Of a DNA stretch of 64,000 nt, positions 2,677-57,528 are shown piece after piece. Origin of the DNA: Stegostoma tigrinum (Eukaryota). Position 1 is the first letter of the stretch. Every line of letters starts with the position of its first letter. The stretch is taken from positions 27,091,951-27,155,950 of the forward strand of contig NC_081380.1 of NCBI RefSeq assembly GCF_030684315.1, in the 5' to 3' direction. The translations under genes and the position numbers were made by a program. Below the pieces are notes generated by a model. That model had not been told where the DNA came from, did not search any database, and worked only from the letters and a program-made list of their open reading frames with translations.

Positions 2677-2883
2677 TGTGAGATTGCTCGCTGAGCTGGA
2701 AGGTTAGTTTTCAGACGTTTCGTCACCATTCTAGGTAACATCATCAGTGAGCCTCTGACGAAGCGCTCACTGATGATGTTACCTAGAATGGTGACAAAAC
2801 GTCTGAAAACTAACCTTCCAGCTCAGTGAGCAAACTCGCATCCAGAACCTCAACCTGAGCGACAAATCTTCTCAAAACTCGCT
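2677..2883. mobile_element. Fold-back Penelope pseudo-LTR mini-insertion (family A) with hammerhead core
   Basis: Inverted arms meet near 2755-2765. Flanked by a 15-bp direct repeat AGTCAGTAGACTGCT (2662-2676, 2884-2898). Confidence 0.8.
2711..2750 (-). ncRNA. Minimal type I hammerhead ribozyme motif
   Basis: Minus strand reads uca-CUGAUGA-U-GUUACC-uagaau-GGUGAC-GAAAC-GUC-uga: complete core, 6-bp stem II, 3-bp stem I, palindromic ACGU helix III. Confidence 0.75.
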
Positions 2884-3191
2884 AGTCAGTAGACTGCTGC
2901 TGAAATTTTCTCAGTTTAATCAAACTCAACACTTCAATGTGTAAATTCCTGAATTATTATTAGAATGTTAACACCCATTCCCAGACACACATAAACATGC
3001 AAGCAGGGCACCTGGCCATTAGATTCTGTTTCATCATGGTATCTCAGTTCCCTTTTAGAAATTGATTATAAAACAGCTGCTTGTGTGGGCTTATTCTAAC
3101 AAAACAATGGTCTCTGACAAGATGCTGCAAGTTTGTTACCAGCCTTGCTCCTGCAATGGTTTTAAGGGAGCAAAAGATTCCGGAACATTTC

Positions 3192-3211
3192 AGAGAGAGA
3201 GAGAGAGAGAG
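3192..3211. repeat. (GA)n microsatellite
   Basis: About 10 AG units seen directly. Confidence 0.9.
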
Positions 3212-6200
3212 ACACTGGTCGGTGCTGGGAGAGTGAATAAAGTGTCAATGGCCCTCTGCCCCTCTGGGATTAAAAAAACCCACTTAAATAGCAAGACTCT
3301 GGCAAGGATTTTTTTCTTTATCACATATTTCAATCAGACAGCATTTTTACTTCCCTATTTCATTGTTTTGTATTTATAGTTTACCTTGAATTAAGTTTAT
3401 CTTTACAATTTGTTCTGGCTTTGGGAAGGCACACTAAGCTTTATTCTACATATAGTCTTGAACCCTATTTAAGGCACAAATACACAGGAGTTTTCCCTCC
3501 CTCTTTGATTTACATGAGGAAAAAGACCTAAACTGATTACAGATTCATGGACACACACTATCTTATATCATGAATTGGTTTCCTGCAGTGTTTCATACTG
3601 TTACATAACCAAAAGCAGACAAACTGAATATCAGCTTTGTTCTTCTGTAAATCTTGGCTCAGAAATCAGGCTATGTAACTGCTTCCCAATGGCTGTCCCA
3701 CCCTACGAAGATGTGCCAACTAAAACCTCGACCAAGATTGTGGCGAGTCCATGCCCATTTTGTGTGGTCTTGCTACAGCTTGATAGAAACTCCTGGCATA
3801 CAGTGGATTCCAAATTAACCAGATTTGTCCCTTCCCCCACATTTTTGCTAGTTTCTGGAAGGATTCAGAAATCTCAGCCTCAAAATACTGTACACTGGCA
3901 GCTACAGTCACGAATGTTGAGACATTCTGAAGAGATACTGGCCTCTCGCCATCACGTCTAATTTAAGTCTTGCTGAGCCGTACACCTAAGCTTTATAAAA
4001 CTGGTACAATGCAAGTAACACATAATAAAAGGCCTGCCCACACATTCCCTACTTCTCAGATGTCACACACTGTTGCCAGGACCTCCAACGTTGCTACATT
4101 CCTCTTCAGTTAGCTCACTGCAATAGGCATGTGATCGTTTAGGTTAGAAGGTAAAAGCCACTGCTGATGGAAACCAAACTGTAACCCAGTTATCTCGAGG
4201 AGAACAGTGTGATTTCCATCATCAGTCAGATCTCTTTTTATTCAACTTTGCTGCTGCTTTTCGCATCTCATTCACTTGGAAATGCATCTGTCAGAAGGTG
4301 TGGAAAACAGCCAAGATTTTGGTTAGAAAGTGCTTCTGGAGATACGGAATGAAAACTTCCTCTTTCGGAAAAAGAAAACGTTACACTGTGATTTGCTCAC
4401 AAGTTCACCAAGACAAGGCCCAGTGAATAAAGTTATATATAGTCTCTGTCCATTACTGAGAACAAGTCATGTAGTGTCATTGCCTTCAAACCACCTCCAA
4501 CCCAACTCATCCATTACTAATTGCCAAAAGCTAATGATTTTTGGCCCAAATTCAAAAACCTTGCCAATGGATTAAAAAAAAGATGCAAGGATTGATGAGG
4601 CTAAAACAATGTTTATTTGGGAGGTCTAGACTGCATGTTTGAAGCTGTTCAAAACATACTAATGGGAAACTGTGGCTGACTTGGATACACGGCTTTTTAT
4701 CTTTTGATCTCCTCAGATGAACACCTGGCAGCAAATTAAATTTTAAAAAAAATTCTATGCAGCATTTACCTAATAACAACGATGCTGATAGCAGTATTTC
4801 CAGCTGCTGTGGGGCCATTGTAAATTACATCAGACGGATTTGCACAGCTTAGGGTGGCATTCCAACCCAGGGCAAGAGACAGAAAGAAAAGGGTGTACCC
4901 ACCCCCCGTCACTATAATTTGGTATTTCACACCCTTCTCCTCACCTCCGCTTCTCCTGCAACCCTCTCCCTCAAATAATGGTGTTTTTTAACCTGACATC
5001 CCAGCACCTTCTCTCCTTCATTGAGAACCCCAATTCCTCCCTAACCAAAAGCCTCTACTCATCTCTACTTCCTGCTTCCATGATCTTCTCCTTGGGATTC
5101 ATTTGTAGTTCCTAGCAACAGCCTCTACTACATTCATGGATTGAGCTGCTTGCCAGTCACATTGGCTAACACCTCTCAAAGACAGGTCTTCCGGTCCTCA
5201 AAGGGCAAAAGCCCCATTTTAACCTTGTCAAGGTTGTTGCCAGCGTAGCCTTTTTTAAAGCCAGTTGACTCTGGACCCCTGTGGAAAGCCCTCTGAAAAA
5301 TCTCTTCATGTAAGTGATGACCCTTCCAGAAAATCAAGCTTCAAGTTTCAAACTCAGATATTTGTGTCACGGGTGTAAAACTTTATAAAGAAACGTAGGG
5401 CAGCTTGGAATGAGGGCAAAAACTCCCCATGAATTGAAGATTGCAGAATTAGGAGTTGCCTCTTAATTCTGATTACACTTAAAAAGAAAATAAAGTCCAA
5501 GTTCTGAAGGACAGTTCAAGAATATAGTGACTTCTTAAAATAGTTGAGATAGTTTGACCAGTGGAAGACAGAATCACCTTGTCAGCAGAACAGTGCTTTG
5601 CATTATGAAATGCTCTGGACCTTTGAAAAGATAGGAATTACCACAGCTATTCTGTTAAGTTCCAAACGATTACTGGTGAAAGTTTTGGCATCAAGCAGAT
5701 TTGGCCTTACCTCATTCAGAATGGTAACTGGGTTCCATTCTAATGCTTACAGACTATGTAGAATTGCAATATTTTTGAAAAATTAATACTTTTGATTTGA
5801 TTAAGCAAATGAGGAATTAAATTTATATTTGCTTCAGTGTGGTTAGTTGTAATAATTTTTGGTAAGGATGAGAGCAATTTGTCTTGGATCATAAGTAATG
5901 CCATTGGTTTGTAGTTTTGTGGCTCATGCTGATGTAAACTTAGGCTAACACATGTAAGAATTGACTTCAGGTATAAAGTTTTGGCTCAAGAACATACATA
6001 TGTATTAATGTGGTTTAAAAGATGTAAGAGGCCTATGTGCATGTGTATGTTAGGTTCCCTTGTGACTTCCGTAGTCCTGTAGTTGGTTTGATCATTTTAG
6101 ATGTATCAGTATGGACATTTGGAGTGATAATTACACAGTAAACTGTTACATTAATGGCTCATTAGATCATTACCAAAATAAAATGGAGGTAGTCAGCTGA

Positions 6201-6674
6201 GAGGGACAAGCTATCATAAAAGGACCCTACAAAATGTTTGGCATGTCAAAGAAAGAATGAGGAAATAGTAGGATATTACTAACATTAACTGTTAAAGAAA
6301 CGATTCAAGAATCGGACAGACACTAGCCAATCCAAGACTGACCACAGATTGTTTGTGCGTGAATAGGTCAATCAGAGTTCAGAATGCTTCTGAGCACAGA
6401 CAGGGCGTGGTGCTACAACTGTGCTTTTGTGGCTCATCGCACAAGATTGAAGACTGAAGAGTGAAGCAGAACTTCAACAGAACGGAACAAAAGACCCATG
6501 CCCAGTCAACAAGTGCTATGCTCTCGCATCCTGAAGTGGACAAACTGAAAACCACCTGCTGTTCTTAAGTATTATTTCTTTTGTACTTATTATGATAAAC
6601 TTAATAAATTCTGTGAAATGTGTAAAAAGATTTTTGTACCTGGAATGGGCATCATAACTCAAAAAACCCCCCGA

Positions 6675-6900
6675 AAGAACTGCAGATAAATCAGAAACAA
6701 AACCAGAAGTTGCTGGAAAAGCTCAGCAGGTCTGGCAGCATCTGTGAAGAAAAATCAGAGTTAACGTTTCGGGTCCGGTGACCCTTCCTCAGAACGGAGT
6801 TCAGCGTTGATTTTTGAGAAAGGGTCACCAGACCTGATACGTGAACTCTGATTTTACTTCATGGATGCTGTCAGACCTGCTGAGCTTTTCCAGCAATTTG
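6675..6900. mobile_element. Fold-back Penelope pseudo-LTR mini-insertion (family B)
   Basis: Inverted arms TTGCTGGAAAAGCTCAGCAGGTCTG... / ...CAGACCTGCTGAGCTTTTCCAGCAA. Same family at 14930, 15320, 27970, 50959 and 56716. Confidence 0.8.
6760..6795 (-). ncRNA. Minimal type I hammerhead ribozyme motif
   Basis: Minus strand reads guu-CUGAGGA-A-GGGUC-accg-GACCC-GAAAC-GUU-aac. Confidence 0.7.
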
Positions 6901-7090
6901 TTTATCTTGTGGGTGATGTAACTAATCAGAACTGGTAAACTTTAGATTGGTACTCTCAAACACAGGCTATAAATACAACTGATGTAGGTTTTCACTTAAG
7001 GTTATTGTGCACACCAAAAATATGATGGATTTTACATCCTTCGGTGATATAAACTTAATAATCTTGAGGAACAGCTCAAAAGACGCTTAC

Positions 7091-7182
7091 CCAACTGTTC
7101 CTGTCCGGTCATCCTGGCAGGCACGTTTCACTCTGGGATTAAACGTGATCTTGGTATGGAGAGCGGCTTCTTTTGTGAAACA
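7091..7182 (-). CDS. RAB34: Ras-related protein Rab-34, second coding exon
   Basis: 92-nt exon, tttttcag / gtaagc. Encodes CFTKEAALHTKITFNPRVKRACQDDRTGTVG, compared with human CLRKEAALHGHKDFHPRVTCACQEHRTGTVG (recalled). No later exon found in 1-7090, so the gene probably continues off the left edge. Confidence 0.93.
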
Positions 7183-7339
7183 CTGAAAAAAATACAGGTG
7201 TCAAATCACACTAACAAAATATGGTTAATTAAAAATTGAAGATAGGCTTTAATTAAACTCAGTCCTAAGTCTGTGCTGAGTTAGTCTGACTTGAGGGAGC
7301 AACATTCAATGCCCTTTGGCTAAAAAGAGATCACAAGCA

Positions 7340-7615: not shown

Positions 7616-7899
7616 TAAGCAGTCAAGGTGTTCTTGCTTTCAATCCCTGCCTAGTGCCCTGTGCTTGACTGGCTGTGTCTGTGGTTCTTATTTGAGGACA
7701 GCAGGATGTTTGGTCACCATGGTTGCTCCAGTTAATCAAACAGCTGGCAGCCTAGTACACAAAATCTACAGCCACCTGGGTAGATATGTACAAGACACTA
7801 AATGTTAATCTGCATCAAGGGCAGTTTCTTCAAGAAAGAAGGGGCAAAATTGGGAAACAGGTCAGAATTTTACTCGCTTTCCCATTTTGAGATTTTTTT

Positions 7900-33063: not shown

Positions 33064-33919
33064 GTGAGAGGCTCCGGGCCTGGTGCTGGAGTTGTTGTTT
33101 CAAACACCGACAAACAGGCTGTTGGCAGTCTCTCCGGCAAGAAGGAGACTCGGCTCTTCCTCATAGGAAGCTAATTGCTCCGTATCAATTCTAAATCGCC
33201 GAGATACTCACCTTCGGTCGGATCGGCCGCCCGCCAACGTGGTGGCTGCAGGGCCTGAGGCCTGGGGTTTCAGGCTGGCGAGGGGGTGTTTGACAGCACC
33301 GAGTCTGGGTGCTGGCGGTTTAACCTGCACCAGGAGTGAAAAATGTCATGGGGATCCCGGCCTGGACTGTTCCAGGGCTCGGTCCCTCATGTGGAAATGG
33401 ATCCAGCAGTTCAAAAGCTCTGATAGCAATATGGTTTTGATTTGGCTTGGATTGGCCGATGCTGGTGTTTCTATGCCAAGTGCTATTCCTGTGCCGTTTA
33501 GAAGCCTCTAGTTGGTGAACTGTAAATGTATTAATCGTTAAAATCGGGTCTACGAGTGTCCGGAGTACATTAGTGCATTGCAGCACTATCATATGTGTTT
33601 TAATAGCCAATTGAAAGCAAATTTCTGCTCATTTTGAAGTTAGCGTGTTTTATAAAATGTATAAAGGTTAATGGGATCTGCAGGAGGACATCTCGCCCAT
33701 CCCCAAGATTCATTCACCAAGATCATACTTGATCTTCTGCCTCAAAAGACTTTCCCACCAAATGTCTCATTTGGGTCTGCCTAGCTCAGTTGGCTCAACT
33801 GCTGTTTTGCGATGTAGAGTACTGTTAATATTCACGGTTCAAATCCAGCAGTACCTGAGGTTATCCTGAAGGACTTCTTTTCAACCTCTTCCCTCACGGC
33901 CCATCTATTCGTTAATCCA

Positions 33920-34138
33920 AGATAATAAAGTGTGGAGCTGGATGAACACAGCAGGCCAAGCAGCATCTTAGGAGCACAAAAGCTGATGTTTCGGCCCTAG
34001 ACCCTTCATGCTCCAATGGAGGGTCTAGGCCTGAAACGTCAGCTTTTGTGCTCCTGAGATGCTGCTTGGCCTGCTGTGTTCATCTAGCTCCACACTTCGT
34101 TATCTTGGATTCTCCAGCATCTACAGATCCCATTATCA
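33920..34138. mobile_element. Fold-back PLE pseudo-LTR mini-insertion (family C)
   Basis: About 90-bp inverted arms; 15-bp target duplication CTATTC(G/T)TTAATCCA at 33905-33919 and 34139-34153. The CUGAUGA box is disrupted on both arms. Confidence 0.85.
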
Positions 34139-34669
34139 CTATTCTTTAATCCAGCTGGATTGTTTAGCTCAGTTGGATAGAAAGCAGGGTCATGCAAACA
34201 GTGTGGATTTAATCACCACACTGGAAGAGATTACCATGAAGGATTCTCCTTCTCAACCTTTTTCTTTACCTGAGGTATGGGGACCCTTGGGTTAAACCAG
34301 TTGTGTGTATCTTTTCTCTCTCTAGTGAGAGCAGCCCTATGGACCGAAAGGACGATGGCAACTTTGTTTCTCTTACCTGTGGCCTAACAACTCTACTCGT
34401 TATAAATCCAGTGATTTGTCTTGAAAACACAAAAGATTCTGTTCCCTCTGCATGAAAATACCCTCCTAACCTCTGCCTTAAATGGTATTCTCTTTATCCT
34501 GAGAAACAGTCCCCTCCCTAACTGCCCTGTTGAGCCCTGTAATAATAATCTAAAATTGCTAAGATTTTAAAAATCAAGCTGTGTATAACAGTTATTAAAA
34601 ATGATGTTTAATGTTCTTGCTGGAAATAAGATGGGGCAGGTATAATAAAAGACTCTTTATCATCTTTAG

Positions 34670-34850
34670 CTGTCCCTGCCAAAACGGAGGCTAAATCCAA
34701 GGCCTTGAAAGCAAAGAAGGCCATTTTGAAGGGAGTTCATAGTCACAGGCAGAAGAAAATTAGGACAACACCTACCTTCAGGAGACCAAAGACACTCAGA
34801 CTGAGAAGGCAACCCAAGTATCCCAGAAAGAGTGCACCCAGGAGGAACAA
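34670..34850 (+). CDS. RPL23A: RPL23A exon 2
   Basis: tttag| (A)[59 protein letters not shown] |gtatgt; 181 nt. Confidence 0.97.
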
Positions 34851-35302
34851 GTATGTCTTCAAACCATTCATTTTTTTTTCAATCAGCTTTACTTCGCTTA
34901 ATTGCCATGAGGGCTTGTATTTGAAATTCTCATCTTTTCTAGAAAGGAGAGTAAACTTGGCATTTCTTTTCCTGGAGAAAAGCAAAGCACTACTGATGCT
35001 GAAAGTGTCAGGTTAACATTTCAGATTAATGACCTTGCACCAGAACTGGTAAAAAGAGAAATATTGATTTCAAGGAAGGCTAAGATACTTTATGCCAAAG
35101 TATGAGACCCTCAGCAGCCATATGTTGAGTTGAATTGACTCTTCACTGTGTGTTGGTCTGTGGCTTTTCCATTGCTGGCAGTGGAGGTTTTCACTGGTCC
35201 GCAACCTGTAGATACTGATCAATTTTGTTAGTCCAGTTAGTGTTCCCTAATCCAGTATAGATGCTGGGTTGAGAGTTCTTTGTGTGTACTAAATATTCAA
35301 AG

Positions 35303-36973: not shown

Positions 36974-37045
36974 GGTGCAGATGATGTCTTTTAGCGATCA
37001 AAGCATGAGAATTTATGATTATCACAATTTTTGTACTGATGCACC
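36974..37045 (+). ncRNA. SNORD4: C/D snoRNA SNORD4 (Z17/mgh18S-121)
   Basis: Terminal stem GGTGCA/TGCACC, box C ATGATG (36981), guide AGCGATCAAAG (36993-37003), D' ATGA, box D CTGA (37036-37039). RPL23A is the known host gene. Confidence 0.92.
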
Positions 37046-37114: not shown

Positions 37115-37375
<261 letters not shown>

Positions 37376-38948: not shown

Positions 38949-39026
38949 CATTGTGTACAATGATGGAAACTGTTTCACCTGATCAATGTGAAGAATTTGA
39001 TTCAAAGGAACCACTGATGCACAATG
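38949..39026 (+). ncRNA. SNORD42: C/D snoRNA SNORD42 (U42)
   Basis: 9-bp terminal stem CATTGTGTA/TGCACAATG, box C ATGATG (38960), guide CAAAGGAACCA next to box D CTGA (39014-39017), complementary to 18S TGGTTCCTTTG. About 80 nt upstream of the acceptor. Confidence 0.93.
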
Positions 39027-39661: not shown

Positions 39662-39998
39662 AGTTTGAGAAGTTTTTGTAGCTCAGGTTGTGGATGAGGT
39701 TTAGACTTGCTCGCTGAGCCGGTGTGGTTGATTGTAGACATTTTGTCACCTTGCTAGGTAAAATCATCAGTGTGTCTCCAGTGAAGCGTTGGTGTTCTGT
39801 CCTGCTTGTTATTTATATGTTTCTGTTTGCCCTTGTAAAACAGAACCAGACGTGATATCAACCACCCCAGCAAACCGAGACATATAAATAACAAGCGGAC
39901 AGAACACCAATACTTCACCAGAGGTGCACTGATTATGTTACCTAGCAGGGTGATGAAATGTCTGCAGTCAATCACACCAGCTTGGCGAGCAACTCTAC
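39662..39998. mobile_element. Fold-back PLE pseudo-LTR (family A) nested in a SINE
   Basis: Related to 2677-2883; inverted arms about 39705-39825 and 39878-39995. Both hammerhead cores are mutated. Confidence 0.75.
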
Positions 39999-40879: not shown

Positions 40880-41173
40880 AATTTTTAAAAGTTCTTTTGG
40901 TAGTTTACAGTTGAGTTTTTCCTTTTGGTTACTTGGAAAAATCTTATTAAATGCTCAGTGTTTTTTGATCAAAGACTGTTTATTCTAACATTACCAATTT
41001 TTAAAAAATGTACGTACTGTTGCATCTGTTTTGATCCTGCATCTGGTGATTCACTGCTGCAACTTCTGTTTGCTGCCGAACCCTTCTCTTGTGCTGTTGT
41101 AGCTTCCAACTCTTTGCTCCTATTTTCCAGCCTGTCTAAGCTTCCATCTTATTCAAACTGGTGATGTATTCTG

Positions 41174-41296
41174 AGATAGTAGGAACTGCTGATGCTGAAG
41201 TCAGATAACAAGGTGTGGAGCTGGATGAACACAGCAGGCCAGGCAGCATCAGAGGAGCAGGAAAACTGATGTTTTGGGTCTGGACCCTTCTTCAGT
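41174..41296 (-). mobile_element. Single-arm PLE pseudo-LTR fragment (family C)
   Basis: Matches the 45957 arm; ends just past the hammerhead position; TGTATTCTG flanks both sides. Confidence 0.7.
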
Positions 41297-42751: not shown

Positions 42752-44947
42752 CAGTGGAGCTTGAGGTGGGAGGAAGGACAGGTTAGGGAGGTGGGGATGA
42801 GCTGGGCTGGTTTTGGGAGGTGGTAGGGGGACTTTGAAGCTTGTGCCCTGGTTGACTCATTGTCTCCACCTGCTCCTGCCCCACCAAACTTATCTCCACC
42901 TATATGGACTCCATTTTCTCTCCCTTGGTCCAGGAACACCTTACCTACGTCCATAACACCACCCACGCGCTCCAGAACTATCAATTTTCCAGCCCCCAAC
43001 ACCTCATCTTTACCATGGACATCCATTCCCTATATATCTGCATTCCCCATACCAATGGCCTAAAGGTCCTCGGCTTCTTTCTGTTCAGCAGGCCCAACCA
43101 CTGACACCCTTGTCCGCTTAGCCGAACTCGTCCTCCCCCCTCAACAACTTCTCTTGATTACTCCAACTTCCTACAGACAAAAAGGGTGGCGATGGGTACC
43201 TGCATAGGCTCAAGCTATGCCTGCCCCTTTGTAGGTTATGTGGAACAATCCCTCTTCCATACCTACACTGGCCCTAAGCCCCACCTCTTTCTCCATTACA
43301 TTGATGACTGTATCAGGGCTGCCTCATGCTCCCATGAGGTGCTTGAACAGTTCATCCACTTCACCAACACCTTCCACCCCAACCTCAAGTTCACCTGGAC
43401 TATCTCTATCAAATCCCTCACTTTCCTGGACCTCTTGTCTCCGTCAACCACCTGGAAACCAATAGCCATTTCAAGCCCTCCGACTCCCACAGCTACCTAA
43501 AATACACCTCCTTCCCACCCACCTTCTTGCAAAAATGCCATCCCCTATTCCCAATTCCTTTGCCTCCGCTGCATCTGCTCCCAGGATGAGGCATTCCACT
43601 CCCGTGTATCTCAGATGTCCTTGTTTTTCAAGGACTGCAACTTCCTGCCCTCTGGTCGAGAACACCATCGACTGTGTCTCCCACATTTTCTGCAACTCAT
43701 CCCTCAAAACCCCTCCCTGCAATAAAAACCAAAACAAAATCCCCCTCATCCTCACATACCACCCCACCAACCTCCGGATCCAACACATCAGCCTCTGACA
43801 CATAGAACATTACAGCACAGTACAGGCTCTTCGGCCGTCGATGTTGTGCCGATCTGACATACCGATTTCAAGCCCATCTAACCTACAGTATTCCATGTAT
43901 GTCCATCTTCCGCCATCTGCAATCCGACCCCACCACCAAAGACATTTTTCCCTCCCCACCCTTATCTGCCTTCCGGAAAGCCCACTCTCTCCATGATTCC
44001 CTTGTCCGTTCCACACTCCCCTCCAGCCCCGCCACTTCCGGCACTTTTCCCTACAACTGCAGGAAGTGCTACACCTGCACCTATGCCTCCTCCCAGGCAC
44101 CAAGAAGACTTTCCACATCAGGCTGATGTTCACCTGCACATCTGCTAACGTGGTATGCTGTATCTGCTTTACCTGTTGTGTCCTCCTCTACATTGGGTAT
44201 CCCAAGCAGAGGCTTGGGGACCGCTTTGCAGAACACCTACGCTTGGTTTGCACTAAACAACTGCACCTCCCAGATAACAAAGTGTGAAGCTGAATGAACA
44301 CAGCAGGCCAAGCAGCGTCTGAGGAGCACAAAAGCTGGCGTTTCGGGCCTAGACCCTTGCACCTCCCAGTTGCGAACCACTTCAATTCTCCCTCCCATTC
44401 CGTCGACGACATGTCCATCCTGGGCCTCCTGCAGTGCCACAACGATGCTACTCGAAGGTTGCAGGAACAGCACCTCATATTCCGTTTGGGAACCCTGCAG
44501 CCCAATAGTATCCATGTGGATTTCACAAGCTTCAAAATCTCGCCTCCCCCCACTGCATCCCAAAACCAGCCCAGCCTGTCTCCGCCTCCCTAACCTGTTC
44601 TTCCTCTCACCTATCCCCTCCTCCCACCTCAAGCCGCACCTCCATTTCCTACCTACTAACCTCATCCTGCCCCCTTGACCTGTCCCCTCCCTACCTCCCC
44701 ATCTACACTCACCTTTACTGGCTCCATCCCCGCCTGTTTAACTTGTCTGTCTCCTCTCTACCTATCTTCTCTTCTGCCAACCTCCCCCTCTCTCCCTATT
44801 TATTTCAGAACCCCCTTCCCCTTCCCCCATTTCTGAGGAAGGGTCTCGGTCTGAAATGTCAGCTTTCCTGCTCGGTCCTGCTGTGTTCATCCAGTTTCAC
44901 ACCTTGTTATCTCGGATTCTCCAGTATCTGCGGTTTCTCCTATCTCT
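42752..44947 (+). mobile_element. Penelope-like retroelement (probably Neptune clade), 5'-truncated with inverted 5' piece; RT plus GIY-YIG, frameshifted
   Basis: IVSTCSCPT, LIFTMDIHSLY, AMGT.IG.SYAC.F, HYIDDCI, C..CYTC linker, FTCTSANVV..I.....LYIG and a 3' pseudo-LTR. 42752-42860 is an inverted copy of the 3' region. Confidence 0.92.
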
Positions 44948-45289
44948 GCAGTATCCTAGCCGGGGTAAAGGAAACGGGAAGCTTGGTGGTGTTAATTGTA
45001 CCTCGGTTTTTAACCCGTTCATCAGTAGTGCCCGTACACAAACTGCGGGGGGGAGCGCCGAATCCTTTCCTGAGCAGAGCTCAAAATGGGTTACAGCTAA
45101 AGTGGGACGTGTCACTGTAGGCAGGGCCTGCATCTCAACACCTTCAAGGAGGAAAATATAGAACCAAGCCAAAAGAGGTTTAGAAAATGTCAAATCTGAA
45201 GGCGTCAGTAATTTTGTTTTGGGGGGGGGAGGGGACTCAAAATCTGAACCGAACTAAAGTGCAGCGAGAAAGCAACACAAAAGAGAGCG

Positions 45290-45600: not shown

Positions 45601-45956
45601 CGGGCCTTTGAATTTTACTGCATGCTTACCGTTTTTATCGCCAATGATAAGGTGCTTTGCTGTCCCGTGTTGTGTAAAACGCCAGATTTTCCACACAGAC
45701 AGTGCTAAGTGTTGTTGCAACGCAGTGGTAGTGTTCCCACCTCTGAGCCAGGAATCCTGGGTTCACGTTCTGCATGCTCCTGAGTTGATCAGAAAACATC
45801 TCAAAATCAAGGTCAGGGTACACTGGGAAAGTGGGGTTCCAGGACGATTAACATTTTGTTTGAATAATAGCGGGAGTCTGGGGGACAGGCAGTGAAAGGC
45901 CATGTGTTGATGTCTGCAGGATTTATCCAGCCAAAGTTGGCAACTCTGTTATAATA

Positions 45957-46166
45957 GAGATAATGGGAACTGCAGATGCTGGAGATTCCAAGATAATAAA
46001 ATGTGAGGCTGGATGAACACAGCAGGCCAAGCAGCATCTCAGGAGCACAAAAGCTGACGTTTCGGGCCATCAGAGCTCTGATGAAGGGTCTAGGCCCGAA
46101 ACGTCAGCTTTTGTGCTCCTGAGATGCTGCTTGGCCTGCTGTGTTCATCCAGCCTCACATTTTATT
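45957..46166. mobile_element. Young fold-back PLE pseudo-LTR mini-insertion (family C)
   Basis: Near-perfect inverted arms of about 75 bp; perfect 15-bp target duplication AACTCTGTTATAATA (45942-45956, 46167-46181). Confidence 0.9.
46072..46111 (+). ncRNA. Minimal type I hammerhead ribozyme motif
   Basis: agagcu-CUGAUGA-A-GGGUC-ua-GGCCC-GAAAC-GUC-agcuuu; predicted cleavage after 46105. Confidence 0.78.
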
Positions 46167-46519
46167 AACTCTGTTATAATAAATGTTTTAAGAGACATTG
46201 TCTAGCAAATGAACTGTGGGTGACAACAAGCTAGTGACAGCTCTGTTGTGATGTGATCAGTGGTTTCAGGAAGAAAAACAGAGTTTGGCATAGATTTCCT
46301 GTCCCACAGGCCCAGTTTATACTTGAGAAAAGTGGGAAAATCAGGACATTTGACAAAATTATCAGGACACTTCATGAAAAACCAGCACAGTCCTGGCAGA
46401 AGCACACTTAGGCCTTTGTGTTATCTGCGGTTGGCGGATGCCCTCTTCATGTCACACGTGAAGCAAGATGATAAGCTCTAGTACCCCATTTCCCCAGAGC
46501 TCTGATCTCGGATCTCCAG

Positions 46520-47393: not shown

Positions 47394-49716
47394 GAACTTA
47401 ACTTTTAATACCTCCCACATCTGCACCTACCTTTCTTTACAGCACTAAAATGACCCTGATCAAATTCAAAAGATATTATCTAGTTGTTGCTGTACTGCGT
47501 ACATTATCTCTTCCTGTTCTTTTTAACCTCTCTTCAGCCTTTGAATTAGTGCATCATCAATTCATCAACTGCCATTACTTACTTGCAATTTTGCCCATTT
47601 AATTGTAGGTGGAGAATCTCCTGTAATGGTTTCTCTGCCTACACCCACACTCTTTCTCTGGAGTTTGCTGTGAATCTAGCTCTCATTTTCCTCATCTACA
47701 TTCCTTTGGTGACATTATACAAATGCAAGAGGTCAATTTCCAACTATACATTGGTGCCACACAGCTCTACCTAACCTCCACCTCCCTGCGAACCTTGCAC
47801 TCCCTCTTTGTTTTCAGACAGATAGGCCATAATTTTCTCCAACATCTGGAAAAGTCAAAGCCATTGTTTTAAACTTGCCTCTTTACCTGAACTGCGTTCC
47901 ATCAATGGTAATTCCATCTTCCTTTCTGAGCATTTTCTCACTGAGCCAGACTATTCAGCGTCTGTCTGGCATGCCTGGACCCCGATTTCCACAACAAGGA
48001 AAACCTTGTCGAATCTTGGGAACATCACTAGTTGCTCTCTCTGCCGCCTCAGCTATTTTGCAGCTGACAATACTGCCTTTGAGTCTGTCCCATCTTAACT
48101 GCATCTGTTCTTGAGTCACCTTCAGTTGTTTGAATTCCCAGCCATTTTAAAAATAAAATTAAAACAGCCTGCCTGTGTCACTGAGAAGTAAAAAAGAACT
48201 ATGCAAAAGAAATTAATTTATTTAAATTCCAAGGCTTTTTAAAAAGAAAATGGTTCTAGATGTTTGTTGACAGTACCAGAAAGTGTGTTATTATGCCATT
48301 ACTAATCTTAGGTTGTGAAAAGCAATCCATCATTATCTGAACTGGCAAGGGATGATAAGTGACCCGGTGCTGGTTAGGATGCACGGATTAACGTTTAACT
48401 GGTAGGCCATCACATTGTTTGGGGTCATGGCTGTCAATGGAAAGTGGTTGGCGGGGTTGATAAGAGATGAGGGCTAAAGTGTTTAAAATTAAAGGAAAAA
48501 TCTTAGCATCCCAGACAACTCAGATGGGCCTTTTAAATACCCCACTTTCAGACTCAATAGTCCTTATGACCACCTGTAATCTACTTCTGGGGCAGTGGGC
48601 TTGAATCTGTTGAATACCTGCACCGGCCTTCAATCCCTAGACTTAAAGTCAGGTCTGTCAAGAAGATAGACCCTCTTGCATCAGCCTTGGCAATGACAAC
48701 ACTTCCCAAAGAGGTTTGAAAAGTGTTATGGATGGATATTTGTGTGGGCATGAAGGTAGTAAGTGGACCTTAACTTGGGGAAGCTTGAGATTATTGACTT
48801 TTGTGAGATGCATGAACGTATGTTCTCTGGAGTTTAGAGGATTGTGAGGTGACCTCAATTAAATATACAAAAGTTTGCGTGGTTTTCATGGTGCAGTGTC
48901 TGGAAATAGAGTGCATAGTCTTGGTATAGAGTTTCCCATTTAGGGTGGGGCAGTATTTACTCAAATGGTTGTGAATTATAGGAATTTCCTACCCCAGTGA
49001 TCTGTGGATGCTTAGTCATTGAGCATATTTACAATGAAAGCAGTAGATTTTTGGATGCAAGAGATCAATGGATAAATGGATCAGGTGGGAAAGGAGCTTG
49101 TGGCTGAAGATCAACAGTGATTTTATTAAATGGCAGAGCAGATTGAAGTGGCTGATGTTTGCTCCTGATCCTGTTTAGTGTTTTCTAATGATGCATTGTT
49201 ATTCATATTTGGATTCTACACCCTCTTCTTTCTACTCTGAACGTCCCCACTCCCAACAACTCTGTTGAATGTTAGTATGCCCTGACTGCTTACTGGAGGG
49301 CAATGCCCGAGTGCCCGTTGCTTTCTAGTACCTTCTGGTTGCTACTTCATGTGACAGCCTAGTCAATATTTGAAGGATGTTTCACTTTTGCAGGCATCGT
49401 ACCCAAAGCAAGATTCTATCCTCACTGAATATTCACGCACTGTATATATTGGGTAGCACCAAGCACTAAATTGTGCCGCAAATGGTAGCTAGCCATTTTA
49501 CCCATCCCAGCTAAGGTACCTGAGTCAACTTGCTACATCGTAACTACTGGTTGAATTGAATTATCTGTAGAGACAGTGAGTCAAACCTTGGGCCTTCTAG
49601 CTCGTATGATTTGAGTACTATGTTTAGTGGTGCATTTACTTGCTGGACTGTCACTATTCTTTCCACGAAGAGTATTTCTGTATAGTGGTTTGATTAAAAC
49701 AATTTGCTGTTGACAG

Positions 49717-50651
49717 ATGGAGTTTTTAAAACAGGCAGCAATGTCATCTGTTATGTCAAATGAAGCTGCCAGGTGCCTGAGGAGGAGTCTCTGGCAGTTT
49801 TCCTGGTTACAGTTTGTTCGTCGTTGTAGCTGCAAGAGGGAAATATCCAACGACAGTGCATCAGTCAAACAGAAGCTCACAGTTAAATCTGAGAAGGCAT
49901 CAAATTCAAGTAAGATCCATGGACACGACTTCAATAAGGCAGAACTGGATGTTAAAGGTAATGCAAAGAGATTAACTGAGCTCCCAGAGAGCTTGCACAG
50001 GTCTGCTGCATTGAAAAAGGTAAGAAGACCAGCAATGAATCTTTCCACTGGAACTTCAAGAAAACAAGATGATGCTAGTTTTGTCTGGCAGTCTCAGAAC
50101 CCTTCCAAAGTCATACATACACAATCAAGCTTGAAACCTAGTCATGTCCGCAACTTGGAATTTCACAACCTGAGAAATGATGATTTTACAAAAAGAACAG
50201 TGCCAAAAATTTCTCCATTGACTGAAAGAGAGTCTCATTCAGAGATGTTGTTTGGCATTGCACCTTGTAACCTGGCCCTTTCCCAATTGCGTAGAAAGAT
50301 TTTCAGACTGTTTGTTAAAGAAAATCGAAGACAGCGAGCTGAAATACAGCAAATCTATCAGCGAGTCAAGGAAATTGGAGTGCCAGTACATCAGGTGATG
50401 AGGAAGGTGCTTGACAGGTTAAGTGGGAACCATGTTCACCAAGGTATTTGTCTTGAGGTGACACCTCTGGACTATGTGAACTATGATCAATGCTCTTCAA
50501 CAGATATTGATGGTTCTGAATTTGAACGCAGTGACAAACCGATCTTGTGGCTGGCACTGGAAGAAATCCAGGATCCCATGAACATGGGAGCTGTGCTTCG
50601 TTCTGCTTACTTTCTTGGAGCAGATCTTGTTCTTGTAAGTCAGCAAAAAAG
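49717..50651 (+). CDS. MRM1: rRNA methyltransferase 1, mitochondrial (SpoU/TrmH family), first coding exon
   Basis: 312-aa ORF with EMLFGIAPC, HQGICLEV and SPOUT motif 1 LALEEIQDPMNMGAVLRSAYFLG; phase-2 donor AG|gtaact. Confidence 0.93.
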
Positions 50652-50958
50652 GTAACTATGAACCCCTTGTATTTTAAATTAACATTGATTGGCTTTGAGC
50701 GTAATATGTTTTAAATAGCTGTTTATCATAATCTGTAAAATATATTGGCATTTAAATATTGTCACAAATGTATATGAAAACCAAACATTAATAAATTAAA
50801 TTATTGTTCAATTGGGTGATAGAAGTGTAAAGCTTTAGTGCCAGGAGGAATGATAATCATGCAAATGGATCCTCAGTTTTTGACATCTGTGCAGTTCATT
50901 GCGTTGTCGTGAAAGGACCTGAATAAAAGTTAAATAAAGAGTATTTTAAAAACATATC

Positions 50959-51146
50959 AGGTCTGGCACTGTCTGTAAAGGAGAAAACAGAGTTAACGTT
51001 TTGGGTCCAGTGACCCTTCCTTGGGTCCTCGCTGGACCTGAAACGTTGACTCTGTTATCTCCATCACAGATGCTGCCAGACCTGCTGAGCCCTTCCAGCA
51101 ACTTTTGATTTTGTTCTTGATTTACAGCATCCGCAGTTCTTTTGGT
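50959..51146. mobile_element. Fold-back PLE pseudo-LTR mini-insertion (family B)
   Basis: Inverted arms meet near 51020; target duplication TTTTAAAAAC(A/G)TATC at 50944-50958 and 51147-51161. Confidence 0.8.
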
Positions 51147-52217: not shown

Positions 52218-55150
52218 GATAGAGTAAAAGAGTTGTACAGCACGGAAACTAACTCTTTGGTCCAACTCATCCACACTAACCAAACATCCCAATCTGACCT
52301 AGTCCCATTTGCCAGCATTTGGCCCATATCACTGTAAATCCTGAGTAAAGATAATAAAATGTGAGGCTGGATGAACACAGCAGGCCCAGCAGCATCTCAG
52401 GAGCACAAAAGCTGATGTTTCGGGCCTAGACGCTACATCAGAAAGGGGGATGGGGTGAGGGTTCTGGAATAAATAGGGAGAGAGGGGGAGGCGGACCGAA
52501 GATGGAGAGAAAAGAAGATAGGTGGGGAGGTAGTGAGGGGATAGGTCAGTCCAGGGAAGACGGACAGGTCAAGGAGGTGGGATGAGGTTAGTAGGTAGGA
52601 GATGGAGGTGCGGCTTGGGGTGGGAGGAAGGGATGGGTGAGAGGAAGAACAGGTTAGGGAGGCAGAGACAGGCTGGACTGGTTTTGGGATGCAGTGGGTG
52701 GAGGGGAAGAGCTGGGCTGGTTGTGTGGTGCAGTGGGGGAAGGGGCCGAACTGGGCTGGTTTTGGGATGTGGTAGGGGAAGGGGAGATTTTGAAGCTGGT
52801 GAAGTCCACATTGATACCATTGGGCTGCAGGGTTCCCAAGCGGAATATGAGTTGCTGTTCCTGCAACCTTCGGGTGGCATCATTGTGGCACTGCAGGAGG
52901 CCCATGATGGACATGTCATCTAAAGAATGGGAGGGGGAGTGGAAATGGTTTGCGACTGGGAGGTGCAGTTGTTTATTGCGAGCCGAGTGGAGGTGTTCTG
53001 CCTCCGCTTGGTTTCCCCAAATGTAGAGAAAGCCACACCGGGTACAATGGATACAGTATACCACATTGGCAGATGTGCAGGTGAACCTCTGCTTAATATG
53101 GAAAGTCATCTTGGGGCCTGGGATAGGGGTGAGGGAGGAGGTGTGGGGGCAAGTGTAGCATTTTCTGCGGTTGCAGGGGAAGGTGCCCGGTGTGGTGGGG
53201 TTGGAGGGCAGTGTGGAGCGAACAAGGGAGTCATGGAGAGAGTGGTCTCTCCGGAAAGCAGACAAGGGTGGGGATGGAAAAATGTCTTGGATGGTGGGGT
53301 CGGATTGTAGATGGCGGAAGTGTCGGAGGATGATGCGTTGTATCCGGAGGTTGGTGGGGTGGTGTGTGAGAATGAGGGGGATCCTCTTTGGGCGGTTGTG
53401 GCAGGGGCGGGGTGTGAGGGATGTGTTGCGGGAAATGCGGGAGACACGGTCAAGGGTGTTCTCGACCACTGTGGGGGGAAAGTTGCGGTCCTTGAAGAAC
53501 TTGGACATCTGGGATGTGCGAGAGTGGAATGCCTCATCGTGGGAGCAGATGCGGCGGAGGCGGAGGAATTGGGAATAGGGGATGGAATTTTTGCAGGCGG
53601 GAGGGTGGGTGGAAGGAGGTGTATTCTAGGTAGCTGTGGGAGTCGGTGGGCTTGAAATGGACATCAGTTACAAGCTGGTTGCCTGAGATGGAGACTGAGA
53701 GGTCCAGGAAGGTGAGGGATGTGCTGGAGATGGCCCAGGTGAACTGAAGGTTGGGGTGGAAGGTGTTGAAGTGGATGAACTGTTCGAGCTCCTCTGGGGA
53801 GCAAGAGACGGCGCCGATACAGTCATCAATGTAACGGAGGAAGAGGTGGGGTTTGGGGCCTGTGTAGGTGCGGAAGAGGGACTGTTCCACATAACCTACA
53901 AAGAGGCAGGCATAGCTTGGGCCCATGCGGGTGCCCATGGCCACCCCCTTTGTCTGTAGGAAGTGGGAGGAATCGAAAGAGAAGTTGTAAATCCTTCTTG
54001 TTAATATACCCATCCAGGTGCCTTTTAAATGTTGAAATTGTACCAGCCTCCACCAGTTCCTCTGGTAGCTCGTTCCTTACACACCTCACCCTCTGCATGG
54101 AAAAAGTTACCTCCCAAGCCCTTTTTACATCTTCCCCCTCACTTCAAACCTATGTCCTCCAGTTTTGCATTCCCCCACCCTGAGGAAAAAGACTTTGGCT
54201 ATTCACCCTATACCTGCCGGTCATGATTTTATAACCTCTGTATGGTCACCCCTCGGCCTCCAGTGCTCCAAAGATAAAAGCCCCAATCTATTCAGCCTCT
54301 CCCTATAGGTCAAATCCTCCAGACCTGGCAATGTGTAAATTTTTTTCTGCATCCTCTCAAGTTTAACAACATCTTTCCTTTAGAAGGGCAACCAGAATTG
54401 TGCACAGTATTCCAAAAGTGGCTTCACCAATGCCCTGTAAAGCCGCAACACGACATCTCAACTCCTATACTCAGTATTCTAATCAATGAAGGCATGCGTG
54501 TCTTCTATTTTCTTCACCACCCTGTCTATCTCTGACTCCACTTTCAAGGAACTATGCACCTGCATCCCTAGGTCTTTTTGTTCAGCAATACTCCTCAGGC
54601 CCTACATTGAATTGTCTAAGTCCTGCCCTGTTTTGCCTCACCAAAATGCAATACCTCACATTTATCTAAATTAAACTCCATCTGTCACACCTTGGTCCAC
54701 TGGCCCTTCTTATCAAGGTCCTGTTGCACTTTGAGATAATCTACTTCACTGTCCACTACACCTAGGTGGGTGTCATCTGCAGACTCACTAACTGTACCTC
54801 CTATATTCACATCCAAATATTTATATAAATGATGAAAAGCAGTGGACCCAGCACTGTTGCTTGCAGCATGCTGCAAGTCACAGGCCTCCAGTCCAAAAAG
54901 CAACCCTCTGTCACCATCCTCTGTTTCCTACCTTTCAAGCTAATTTTATATCCAATTGGCTAGGACCCCCTGGATCCACATGATCTAACATTACTAACCA
55001 GTCTACCATGTGGAACCATGTCAAACACTTTGCTGAAGTCCATATAGACAACATCTACCGTCTTCAAAAAACTCAACCAAGTTCGTGAGACACAGTTTCC
55101 CGTGCACAAAACCATGTTTACTGTCCCTAATCAGTCCTTGCTTTTCCAAA
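52218..55150 (-). mobile_element. CR1/HER1 LINE (52218-52342 and 53986-55150) split by a PLE
   Basis: Tail at 52218 continues after 53986; minus translations RNELPEELVEAGTISTFKRHLD and SADDT. Confidence 0.85.
52343..53985 (-). mobile_element. Young 5'-truncated Penelope-like element (probably Neptune clade), RT C-half plus GIY-YIG plus pseudo-LTR
   Basis: GVAMGTRMGPSYACLFVGYVEQ, LRYIDDCIG, CNRRKCYTCPH, NVVYCIHCTRCGFLYI; few frameshifts; CpG-rich. 10-bp target duplication TGTAAATCCT at 52333-52342 and 53986-53995. Confidence 0.95.
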
Positions 55151-56715
55151 TCTTCTAGTTCTCTAAATAATACAATATCTCACAAACCATGTCGTCAAAA
55201 CAGATTAAGTCGCAATCTCATCTATCTCCGTGTGGTTTGTGGGATCTTGCTGTGCAAAAGTGCCAACTTCAGTGTACAAGAGCACAAAGTAGGAGCAGAA
55301 GTAAACCATTCAACCTGTCTTGCTCACTCTGATATTCAAATCCACAATGCTGCCTAAAACCAGTAACTTTTGACTCCATTGTTAATGAAGAATCCGTTCA
55401 CCTCTGCCTTTAAAGCCGTTGGGTAGTCTTGCCTCCAGTGCTGTCTGGGGAAGAGAATACTAAAGAGTTACATACCTCAGAGAAAACAATTCCCTCTTAA
55501 ATGAGATACAATTTGTTTTTAAATGTGTTCCCTATTTCTCATTATGGGAAGCATCCTTTCAGCATCAACCCTGTCAAGTCCCCTTAGGATCTTGCCTGTT
55601 TTAGTAAGAATGAACCTTGCTTGTCTAAACTGCAAAGAATGCCAGCACAGCTTGCCCTGCCTTCCTTGGTAAGACAACCTCAACCACACCCCGACTCCCA
55701 ATCTCTGAGGATCAGTGAATTAGTTGAGTGAACCTTCTTTGAACTGCTTTTTATGCATTTACTGATCTCCATAAATAAGGAGATGAAAACTGCACAGTAT
55801 TCCAGATGTCTCTCCAATGCCATAGACAGCTTTAGCACCAATTCGGGATTCCTTTCTCCTTGCAATAAATAACAATGTTCCATTTGCCTTTCGAATCACT
55901 TACTGTACTTACATACCAACTTTTTCTTGATTCGTTTACCGAGACACACAGTTCTCTGTATCTCAGAGCTCTGCAATATCTCTACCTAAATAATATGTCA
56001 CTTCTAAACTTCCTGACAGAATGGAACTTTTCCCACATTATACACCACCTGCCAGAGTTTTGCTCACTCACTAACTATATCCCTTAGTAGACTCTCTGCA
56101 AGTCACTCTCCTATCGTTCTTTACGTCATCACCAAGTTTAGCTATTGTACATTTGGTCCCTTCATCCAAGCTTTTGATAAAGACTGTATGTAGTTGAGGC
56201 CCCAGCAATGATCACTGTGGTACTCCACTCATTGCATTTTGTCAACTTGAAAATGACCCAGTTTTGCTCACCCTCTGCTTTATATTAGCCAAGCTTTCAT
56301 CCCTTCTTGCTACTATTTTATTTCATGTACCATGAGCTATTGTTTTGTGTAAGAGTCTTTGATGTTGCATCCTGTCAAATGTTTTCTGGAAAGCTAACTA
56401 CAGTTGATTCACTGGTTTCCTTTTTATCTATATTGCTTGTAGCTTTCTCAAAAAACTCAAATTAATGAAATGGGATTTCCCTTTCACAACATCATGTTAA
56501 CTCTGCTTTATTGCATTAAGATTTTCTAAGTACGCTGCTATCACCATGTTTTAAACAGATTCCAACATTTTTCCTTTGACAAATGTTAGATTAGCAAGCC
56601 AACACTTTCTTGTCTCCCTTCTTTCTTGAACAGATGAGTCGCATTTGCTGTTTTCAAATCAGAGGGGTCGTTTTCTAGAATCCAGAAGAATTAAAGCCAA
56701 CACATCATCTACCAC

Positions 56716-56853
56716 GATAAAAACCAAAAGAACTGCAGATGCTGTAAATCAGGAACAAAAACATAGTCGCTGGAAAAGCTTAGCAGGTCTGGCAGCATCT
56801 GTGACGGAGAAAGCAGAGTTAACATTTCGGGTCACCAGACCCGAAACATTAAT
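56716..56853. mobile_element. PLE pseudo-LTR mini-insertion (family B) folding at hammerhead stem II
   Basis: Ends TTAACATTTCGGGTC-ACCA-GACCCGAAACATTAA; flanked by ATCTAC(C/T)AC at 56707-56715 and 56854-56862. Confidence 0.75.
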
Positions 56854-57290
56854 ATCTACTACCTCAGCAGCCTCTTTTAAAATCCTGGGATGAAATCCGT
56901 CAGGGTCAGGTCACCCGTCAGATTTTAGTTCTAATTTTTTCAGCACCCTTTATGTAGTAATTGTGTTGTTTTAAGTTTCTCACTGACTTTTACATTTTGA
57001 GTCAGTTATTTTTGGGATGTCATTTGTATGTTCCACAATGAAGACAGACAGAAGATAAATGTTTATTTTATCTGCTATTTTCCTATTTTAGTTAATCCCC
57101 TCCGACTCATTCTCAAAAGGACCAGTGCTCACTTTCCTTCCAATTTTTTCTATTGAATCTCTGATTACCCATTGTTCTATGTCTATGTCTAGCTAGTTTC
57201 CTTCTATACTGTATTTTCTTTTGCCTTATTAATCTTATAGTCATGCTTTGTTTGCTATATTCTGAACTGCCACACCCCTTTCCAGAATTA

Positions 57291-57528
57291 GAGATAATGG
57301 GAACTGCAGATGCTGGAGAATCCAAGATAACAAAATGTGAGGCTGGATGAACACAGCAGGCCAAGCAGCATCTCAGGAGCACAAAAGCTGACGTTTTGGG
57401 CCTAGACCCTTCATCAGAGAGGGGGATGGGGTGAGGGTTCTGGAACCCTCACCCCATCCCCCTCTCTGATGAAGAGTCTAGGCCCGAAACGTCAGCTTTT
57501 GTGCTCCTGAGATGCTGCTTGGCCTGCT
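57291..57528. mobile_element. Young fold-back PLE pseudo-LTR mini-insertion (family C) with hammerhead core on +
   Basis: Arms meet at about 57441; perfect 14-bp target duplication CCTTTCCAGAATTA (57277-57290, 57529-57542); CTGATGA at 57466-57472 and GAAACGTC at 57486-57493. Confidence 0.9.

Follow-up and report, generated by a model that had tools for sequence, protein, structure and literature searches.

Minimal hammerhead ribozymes (min-HHRs) were described in the pseudo-LTRs of metazoan Penelope-like elements (PLEs) by Cervera and De la Pena (2014, PMC4209133), who gave the consensus NNN CUGANGAH G..C GAAAN palindrome NUH NNN and already reported covariation at the family level, the spacer nucleotide and copy numbers in the thousands within a genome. 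Dimers of PLE hammerheads were treated by Lunse et al. 2016 (as cited in PMC6765202), and PAc, the Poseidon element of the green anole, has been purified and assayed (Frangieh et al. 2024, PMC11167929). Non-LTR retrozymes were reported in the one chondrichthyan genome sampled by Li et al. (2026, bioRxiv 10.64898/2026.07.22.740005).

We analysed a window of 64,000 nucleotides from Stegostoma tigrinum (NC_081380.1, positions 27,091,951 to 27,155,950) in which a sequence-only reading had flagged four hammerhead cores and assigned them to three families, A, B and C. In sequence, all four match the minimal type I hammerhead pattern already known from metazoan PLEs. The window resembles the 2014 set in that the core is of type I (CUGANGA...GAAA), a single spacer nucleotide stands ahead of the G10.1-C11.1 pair, 15.2-16.2 is palindromic, the site is NUH and helix I is short; a genome has several covarying families, and the copies are mostly solo, with some opposite-strand pairs (PMC4209133). 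A Clonorchis row of that alignment has a spacer U, a 6-bp stem II and a 6-nt loop, as does family A, while in the Acropora Neptune row stem I is GCU/AGC and stem II, like that of family C, is short and G-rich. In contrast to the published set, helix I has just two pairs in most of the window's family C copies. None of the 56 published rows, nor Table S1, holds a cartilaginous fish; relative to that set, this shark is therefore a new host for the motif, which was first described in 2014. The data also suggest that copies are unusually numerous, probably far more so than the 4,000 of coelacanth and the 9,000 of Xenopus given in the same paper. This agrees with the extrapolation of the sequence-only reading that the genome holds very many cores, as 141,896 contigs of one run mapped to a single family C arm.

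The hammerhead of PAc lies at the junction of pseudo-LTR and ORF, two 3' ends define its tail and its targets are A/T-rich (PMC11167929); the elements described here are alike in these respects. Family A also has a potential ORF start at the foot of stem II, with its ATG 28 nt before the cut, compared to 26 nt in PAc. In contrast to PAc, the shark families are known here from sequence alone, family A is not linked to an ORF within the window, and B and C have no long ORF starting in the motif (PMC11167929).

With the EN+ PLEs of Neptune or Nematis type (Craig et al. 2021, PMC8557442; Arkhipova et al. 2013, PMC3846280) the window shares a CX2-5CxxC linker, a C-terminal GIY-YIG-type region, an inverted 5'-truncated copy at the 5' end with palindromes at the inverted junction, a 30-40 bp tail and target duplications. 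On the other hand, most insertions in the window consist of the two ends alone (150-330 bp), and it is the linker motif that suggests the clade. Non-LTR retrozymes likewise carry type I hammerheads in PLE-derived repeats, but they are head-to-tail tandem arrays (bioRxiv 10.64898/2026.07.22.740005), whereas the copies in the window are solo or head-to-head, with no tandem partner in the same orientation near any flagged core within the window.

Hammerhead motifs in the window

The family A core (2714-2747, minus strand, within 2711..2750; C3 at 2747, C17 at 2714) has a 3-bp stem I UCA/UGA, the spacer U, a 6-bp stem II GUUACC/GGUGAC and the site GUC. In the family B core (6763-6792, minus strand, within 6760..6795; C3 at 6792, U17 at 6763) the stems are GUU/AAC (3 bp) and GGGUC/GACCC (5 bp), the spacer is A and the site is GUU. 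The family C core at 46078-46105 (plus strand, within 46075..46108; C3 at 46078, C17 at 46105) has the stem II GGGUC-ua-GGCCC, the spacer A, the site GUC and helices I and II of 3 and 4 bp. Its third stem I pair uses an upstream G at the centre of the perfect palindrome 46069-46082, and in three C copies with longer upstream sequence this pair is a U.C mismatch. The cores, stems and sites claimed for these three copies were borne out. The same GGGUC stem had been claimed for the second flagged family C copy (57463..57496, plus strand), but this copy reads GAGUC, which makes the pair 10.2-11.2 an A.C mismatch, and its stem I has two pairs. A further, unflagged motif at 44833-44860 (within 44830..44863, plus strand) belongs to a C-related subfamily, D, and marks the 3' terminus of a decayed PLE; it carries C15.2>U and its stems are weak.

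All core letters (CUGANGA, GAAA, U16.1 and H17) are present at 2714, 6763, 46078, 57466 and 44833. In each of the four flagged copies a single nucleotide separates A9 from 10.1, the G10.1-C11.1 pair is formed, and helix III is the self-complementary ACGU with no loop. This self-complementarity is destroyed by C>U at 44833 and 39929.

When we ran a structure descriptor on the window, it returned four matches (2714, 6763, 46078 and the unflagged 44833-44860) compared to a mean of 0.007 and a maximum of 1 in 300 dinucleotide shuffles; the 57466 copy was rejected. With one core mismatch tolerated there were 8 matches, and none in any of 8 shuffles. Of the 18 matches in an Rfam scan (E up to 1), none was to a hammerhead family, and those over the palindromes were to microRNA-precursor models with scores far under their gathering thresholds. 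The Rfam hammerhead models expect a full helix III.

Structure of the insertions

The family A core lies in a head-to-head insertion (2662..2898) that has a 15-nt direct repeat at 2662 and 2884 and a right arm about 50 nt longer, the tail. The mirror arm (2767..2806, plus strand) carries the same motif with G12>A, and here A9, the spacer and G10.1 form the ATG at 2776-2778. A second family A insertion (39664..39997), about 76% alike to the first, has two inverted arms with both cores damaged. Family B is represented by a fold-back insertion (6672..6899) with a decayed core in its right arm (6812-6899) and no clear target duplication seen, by a fold-back stub (50958..51142) with a full core in neither arm, and by a stub (56727..56852) whose palindrome turns inside stem II.

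The two flagged family C cores lie in a fold-back insertion (45942..46181) bounded by a 15-nt direct repeat (45942 and 46167), and in a head-to-head insertion (57277..57542) with a 14-nt direct repeat, where the left arm (core 57390-57417, minus strand, G12>A) bears the tail. Other copies are a fold-back insertion with a damaged core (33914..34140), a stub with a 12-nt direct repeat nested in a decayed PLE at about 44274-44357, and a C-related stub (41173..41295, minus strand) that starts at C3 and has G12>A and G16.2>A. Of the 9 insertions tested, 4 have target duplications of 12-15 nt.

In mapped contigs the ends of the family C element fall at 57290 and 57325/6 and the loose flanks are A/T-rich. 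The two ends are 35 nt apart, which fits the published 30-40 bp PLE tail. Copies tend to start at the 5' edge of the motif and not at the cut. Family C gave a hint of junctions falling at the predicted cut (57389/57390), but neither family B nor the window showed this again.

Association with Penelope-like elements

Two decayed, 5'-truncated PLEs connect the motif to protein-coding remnants. The first (43105..44950, plus strand) has an RT and endonuclease remnant and ends in a D pseudo-LTR. The second (52348..53980, minus strand) has an RT remnant, a CX4CX2C linker and a GIY-YIG-type region, and ends in a family C pseudo-LTR with a decayed core (52414-52441). The C and D pseudo-LTRs are thus directly 3' of RT and GIY-YIG-type remnants. 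The ORF remnant at 52654-53980, which the C pseudo-LTR follows, shares 88% identity over 296 aa with a Stegostoma tigrinum protein whose end is a translation of the hammerhead motif region, and RVT_1 and GIY-YIG were found in relatives of the remnant. Within 52654-53625 (minus strand) the linker CNRRKCYTC is followed by VVYCIHCTRCGFLYI, an arrangement with CX2-5CxxC before a C-terminal region of GIY-YIG type.

The sequence-only reading had placed the hammerhead cores in PLE pseudo-LTRs. This holds for C and D, which adjoin these remnants, and for B, which is homologous to C; as judged from sequence, B/C is the pseudo-LTR of a Penelope-like retrotransposon, and the linker motif suggests that the element bearing it is Neptune-like. 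Family A is likely to be a PLE pseudo-LTR as well, having inverted arms, a one-sided tail and a 15-nt target duplication. The frame that begins at its ATG is open for 35 codons in one arm and has one stop in another. No ORF body was found for family A within the window, and protein searches with its short peptide gave no match or one repetitive, unrelated protein. The start codon at the foot of stem II would fit a Penelope/Poseidon-like element, a clade in which the RT-EN ORF lacks the linker Zn-finger and starts in the pseudo-LTR.

Lineages and covariation

The three families had been called unrelated. However, the flanks of B and C 3' of the motif align with a score of 36, which none of 2000 shuffles reached (maximum 27), while those of A against B, C or D score 14-17, which 68-551 of 2000 shuffles reached. 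Because B and C are homologous outside the motif, their sequences define two lineages, A and B/C (with subfamily D), rather than three. We also used flank motifs common to B and C in two metagenome scans; one gave 0 loci, and the 117 loci of the other were attributed to chance (best alignment 38-39 nt, scarcely past the motif).

Since MAFFT misaligned family A against B/C, we tallied stem pairs by their position from the core. The stems had been described as fully covarying, which overstates the case. Between B and C one pair is changed on both sides (2.2-1.2, U-A vs C-G) and another on one side (10.4-11.4), and the right arm of the second family A insertion has G-C at 2.3-1.3; two-sided changes between alignable relatives number two in all. 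The G10.1-C11.1 pair and the fifth C-G pair, on the other hand, are identical in the three flagged families. No meaningful covariation statistic can be drawn from two lineages that were chosen because they pair.

Conservation, decay and predicted folding

Variation in family C was followed in contigs of four runs from three organisms, mapped at 80% likeness, which excludes diverged copies. In the 31-nt motif another letter reached at least 3% in 6 of the 31 places, four of which make up the two CpG sites, and the sole majority difference restores G12, lost in the reference copy. Linkers beside the motif vary between organisms, while the motif has no majority change. On the 3' side of the motif, by comparison, differences of at least 30% were reached in one run or another at 12 of the 62 nt. 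A Fisher test of 0/31 against 12/62 gives p 0.007, a value to which we give no weight as G12 was dropped, places were treated as independent and the windows were picked afterwards.

The sequence-only reading had named a consensus without the core as the outcome that would tell against it; in family C the majority across the family retains the core. It had also expected the core to be more conserved than its flanks, but two neighbouring pseudo-LTR blocks (57342-57372 and 57290-57319) likewise show no difference at 30%, and the motif is not uniquely conserved. Of 138 contigs mapped to 2766-6806 for families A and B, the 40 listed were all single-copy DNA.

Individual copies have decayed. All invariant core letters are retained in 5 of the 13 full-span arms and G12>A occurs in 4 of them; the family B right arm at 6815 has C3>U, G8>A, A14>U and a G at 17. 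In the window's own organism, CpG-type losses at C11.1, G12, C15.2 and G16.2 amount to 11-22% of depth. The motif is conserved at the family level; because the copies in the window decay at CpG sites, purifying selection, if any, is likely to act on source elements rather than on stubs.

All four flagged cores lie within fold-back palindromes that are predicted to hide the hammerhead fold, the predicted probability of stems I and II being 0.0 in each of four folds of whole palindromes. For none of six motifs, as monomer or dimer, was the hammerhead the predicted minimum-energy fold, with energies that omit catalytic-core contacts, which makes the dimer cofolding uninformative.

Proposed role and alternative explanations

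The explanation in which we have high confidence is that these are PLE-type minimal hammerheads in short end-repeat stubs of two lineages, B/C being a PLE pseudo-LTR and A likely one. In RNA of active source elements the motif is predicted to cut after GUC or GUU, weakly; the literature on related elements suggests that this would probably require a dimer or the protein of the element. The copies in the window are likely inert. The stubs would be abortive insertions in which reverse transcription, begun 60-100 nt 3' of the cut in B/C, mostly ends close to the 5' edge of the motif.

It could be speculated, more tentatively, that stub starts at this 5' edge mark the RNA start or a fixed stop of the RT, and that the small family C class of joints exactly at 57389/57390 arose as if the RT ran off self-cleaved RNA and restarted at the tail. 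We consider this doubtful. If true, such joints would be a fossil record of a working ribozyme, showing that template RNA is cut in vivo by PLE hammerheads, in a genome that carries roughly 10^5 of these motifs. The many dated stubs make the in vivo role of PLE hammerheads testable by counting the start positions of copies, which is the part of specialist interest for follow-up.

One alternative is that source elements keep the motif as a protein-binding, promoter or translation-start signal, with cutting a by-product or lacking altogether. For the anole element, in vitro insertion was unaffected by ribozyme mutations, the main template was unprocessed RNA and no RNA reads started or ended at the cut (PMC11167929). 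Naiad elements spread without a hammerhead motif. In the window, the start of copies at the 5' edge, the family A start codon made of core letters and the two equally constant pseudo-LTR blocks are also consistent with such a signal. Nevertheless, we consider it unlikely, as two lineages that cannot be aligned elsewhere both keep every catalytic letter, the NUH site and a self-complementary helix III, features that recur across the 56 published examples (PMC4209133), and the anole motif cleaves with protein, C3G/G8C giving partial rescue (PMC11167929).

Another possibility is that individual genomic copies are active ribozymes under host selection, for example cutting host intron RNA. Three copies do have a complete core with intact stems, and the family is covered by contigs of runs guessed to be RNA. 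This is very improbable, however, as the mirror arm is predicted to pair with each flagged core, the CpG-type losses are frequent, G12 is lost in partner arms of the same insertions and the flagged cores have no close tandem partner.

Equally improbable is that the shared core reflects only inheritance in young, high-copy repeats together with pattern-matching, with no structural selection: B and C are indeed one lineage, copies within a family are 81-98% alike and two-sided pair changes are few, but A has the core in common with B/C and no flank, the descriptor expects only 0.007 matches per window by chance, and between organisms it was the linkers beside the C motif, not the motif itself, that changed.

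The motif occurs above chance and belongs to two lineages

The core described in the sequence-only reading was present at all four flagged places: CUGANGA, a single spacer nucleotide, a hairpin, then GAAAC-GU-H. To score it we used a descriptor that required the two core boxes, the 15.2-16.2 pair, a NUH cleavage site and a minimum of 3 pairs in helix II and 2 in helix I. The window contained 4 matches, at 2714 (family A), 6763 (family B), 46078 (family C) and 44833, the last being an unflagged C-related subfamily (D; 44833-44860, plus strand), compared to a mean of 0.007 in 300 dinucleotide shuffles. With one core mismatch permitted, there were 8 matches in the window and none in 8 shuffles. 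The fourth flagged copy, at 57466, fails the descriptor: with GAG at the start of stem II it carries an A.C mismatch there, and stem I is two pairs long. An Rfam scan of the window matched no hammerhead family. Extrapolation of the 4 descriptor matches per 64 kb gives about 175,000 per 2.8 Gb, with a wide error, the count being small.

The three families had been considered unrelated. B and C are about 70% alike over 82 nt, flank included, and their 3' flanks without the motif align with a score of 36, exceeding 2000 of 2000 shuffles; C and D flanks, motif removed, score 93. With the motif likewise removed, A flanks scored inside the shuffle range against B, C or D. Because the B/C and C/D flanks align while those of A are at shuffle level, we recognize two lineages, A and B/C/D.

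The stems had also been called fully covarying, which overstates the case. Counted from the core outward, pairs 10.2, 10.3, 10.4 and 2.1 have both letters different in A and in B/C, with pairing kept at all of them; these changes amount to one comparison, since A is unalignable elsewhere and the cores were chosen for pairing. G10.1-C11.1 is invariant among the flagged copies, and alignable relatives display two two-sided changes in total. Pair 2.2-1.2 is U-A in B but C-G in C, and pair 2.3-1.3, which is U-A in the first A insertion, is G-C in the second one's right arm. The third helix I pair of the 46078 copy uses the central G of a perfect palindrome (46069-46082), which is likely the mirror image of C2.2. 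At this position U.C is seen in three C copies whose upstream sequence is longer, and a G also stands before the damaged copy at 34013; a C subfamily with G upstream of the motif may exist.

The C motif is constant across the family

We aligned contigs of public runs to one C arm (core 57390-57417, minus strand, within the head-to-head insertion 57277-57542), requiring 80% likeness, so that diverged copies drop out. This gave 141,896 contigs from the window's organism, with about 92% of its run covered, while three runs from two further organisms contributed 13,786, 3,476 and 670; contig depth does not equal copy number. Six places in the 31-nt motif (C3 to 1.3) carried another letter at 3% or more, namely the four CpG letters C11.1, G12, C15.2 and G16.2, one loop letter and G1.2>A. 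G12, lost in the reference copy, is the family majority (68-89% of depth). On the 3' side of the motif, 12 of 62 positions differed at 30% or more in at least one run. As the motif shows no majority change while these 12 nearby places differ, the C family as a whole keeps the core and conserves it better than this flank, as the earlier reading supposed. At 57392-57398, CpG-type core changes were 2-9% in runs guessed to be RNA and 8-16% in DNA-type runs.

The motif is not uniquely conserved, however: two further stretches, 57342-57372 and 57290-57319, were likewise free of differences at 30% or more. They contain the two sides of a predicted helix, which is mostly invariant over 8 B and C copies (two-sided change in 2 of 14 pairs). 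This helix, located at 57302-57374 and in homologous B arms on the 3' side of the hammerhead, would pair AGAUGCUG with CAGCAUCU and is kept in B and C, its 3' strand bracketed by the two element ends; it may be a protein-binding or RT-start structure.

Over the A/B stretch 119,316 contigs aligned, with depth concentrated on both repeat arms. Between two of the organisms, A and B, family A depth (2766-2900) differed about 90-fold, organism B having the lower value, while family B depth was similar; family A may thus have expanded in a lineage-specific burst.

Many inserted copies are decayed

Of 24 arms mapped in the window, 13 were scored across the full motif; 5 of these retained all invariant core letters and 4 carried G12>A. 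CpG-type changes reached 11-22% of depth in the window's organism. Folding of whole palindromes gave helices I and II a predicted probability of 0.0 in all four cases. The copies in the window are, on these predictions, likely inert, and the constancy of the C motif likely reflects the source elements, not the inserted copies.

Minimal hammerheads of Penelope-like elements (PLEs) are described as inactive as monomers and of low activity as dimers (PMC4209133). The motif of PAc, a Poseidon element of the green anole, is reported to cleave only with the element's protein and to be dispensable for insertion in vitro (PMC11167929). By analogy, we infer the same for active elements of these families: two motifs in tandem transcripts would pair via ACGU, or the protein would remodel one, and cutting after GUC or GUU would yield unit-length RNA. 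Folding energies spoke neither for nor against this mechanism.

Cleavage might leave a footprint where copies begin. One side of the B joints fell at 6792-6795 in 15 of 15 listed (of 455), and 6795, helix I's first letter, was the largest loose end among those listed in all four runs. The B reference may itself depart from the family sequence at 6795, but loose letters there agreed poorly (0.34-0.40), as expected of unrelated flanks. None of the listed B joints lay at 6762/6763, where an indel near 6754 hampers comparison. For C, with a reference that extends upstream by 25 nt more, the largest loose end listed on the upstream side was 57418, adjoining C3, in two of four runs. Joints starting at the predicted cut, 57389 or 57390, were 6 of the 12 listed (of 122) and, in another joint list, 1 of 15 (of 48); depths suggest that they represent a few tens of copies. 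No arm in the window (0 of 24) starts within 3 nt of the cut, and the anole study reports no RNA reads ending there (PMC11167929). The C joints are a weak hint of a cleavage footprint.

The B/C motifs reside in Penelope-like elements, and the A motif probably does

Two decayed elements end in the motif, one in D (43105-44950, plus strand) and one in C (52348-53980, minus strand). The latter gave a weak RVT_1 match (E 0.0018, under the curated cut-off) and shares 88% identity over 296 aa with a Stegostoma tigrinum protein that has a weak GIY-YIG match; in a full-length relative, RVT_1 and GIY-YIG both exceed their cut-offs. The C-bearing element also has a CX4CX2C linker, a type that marks Neptune or Nematis elements (PMC8557442; PMC3846280). 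Flagged cores lie within head-to-head palindromes with unequal arms, one longer; target duplications of 12-15 nt flank 4 of 9 insertions tested, and family C contigs have their ends at 57290 or 57325/6, flanked by A/T-rich sequence. PLEs are described as having inverted pseudo-LTRs, palindromic junctions and a tail of 30-40 bp (PMC8557442; PMC3846280). The family A insertion has the same anatomy as B/C, and its A9-spacer-G10.1 forms an ATG, resembling the anole Poseidon element (PMC11167929); protein searches with a short family A peptide found no link to a PLE protein.

Several insertions have further features. A family C stub (44262-44369) has inserted into the endonuclease region of a different PLE and is flanked by a 12-nt target duplication. 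The palindrome of one family B copy turns within stem II (56829-56852), as if new cDNA had snapped back onto the stem II hairpin. A pyrimidine tract with a terminal CAG about 24 nt upstream of C3 (52460-52500 and 44790-44810) resembles a splice acceptor; in Drosophila Penelope, an intron ends at helix I (PMC4209133). The 57440 palindrome turns at the position of this feature. The second family A insertion has a TATA-like box in each arm, about 45 nt upstream of C3 (39800-39820, 39880-39900). At 57288-57332 many contigs join long and short 3' ends on opposite strands, which may represent the element inserting tail-to-tail into its own end.

PMC4209133 already reports the core with its spacer and G-C pair, the palindrome, the covarying families and the abundance across genomes; it counts about 4,000 hammerheads in coelacanth and 9,000 in Xenopus. 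Cartilaginous fish are absent from its alignment and Table S1, whereas the S. tigrinum motifs come from one. The motif type is already known in PLEs; its cartilaginous-fish host is absent from the 2014 set. Among the papers listed in literature searches on Penelope-like hammerhead ribozymes in sharks or elasmobranchs there was no shark case, and in one review "shark" refers to the shape of the motif. A 2026 preprint describes hammerhead-bearing retrozymes in one chondrichthyan (Li et al., bioRxiv 10.64898/2026.07.22.740005).

Other features of the window

An RPL23A-like exon (Pfam Ribosomal_L23eN) and intronic C/D snoRNA matches occur at 34630-35016, 36974-37045 and 38953-39022; snoZ17 scored over its gathering score and SNORD42 under. 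An open frame at 49714-50655 contains SpoU substrate-binding and methylase domains and is likely, judging by these domains, an exon of an rRNA 2'-O-methyltransferase gene.
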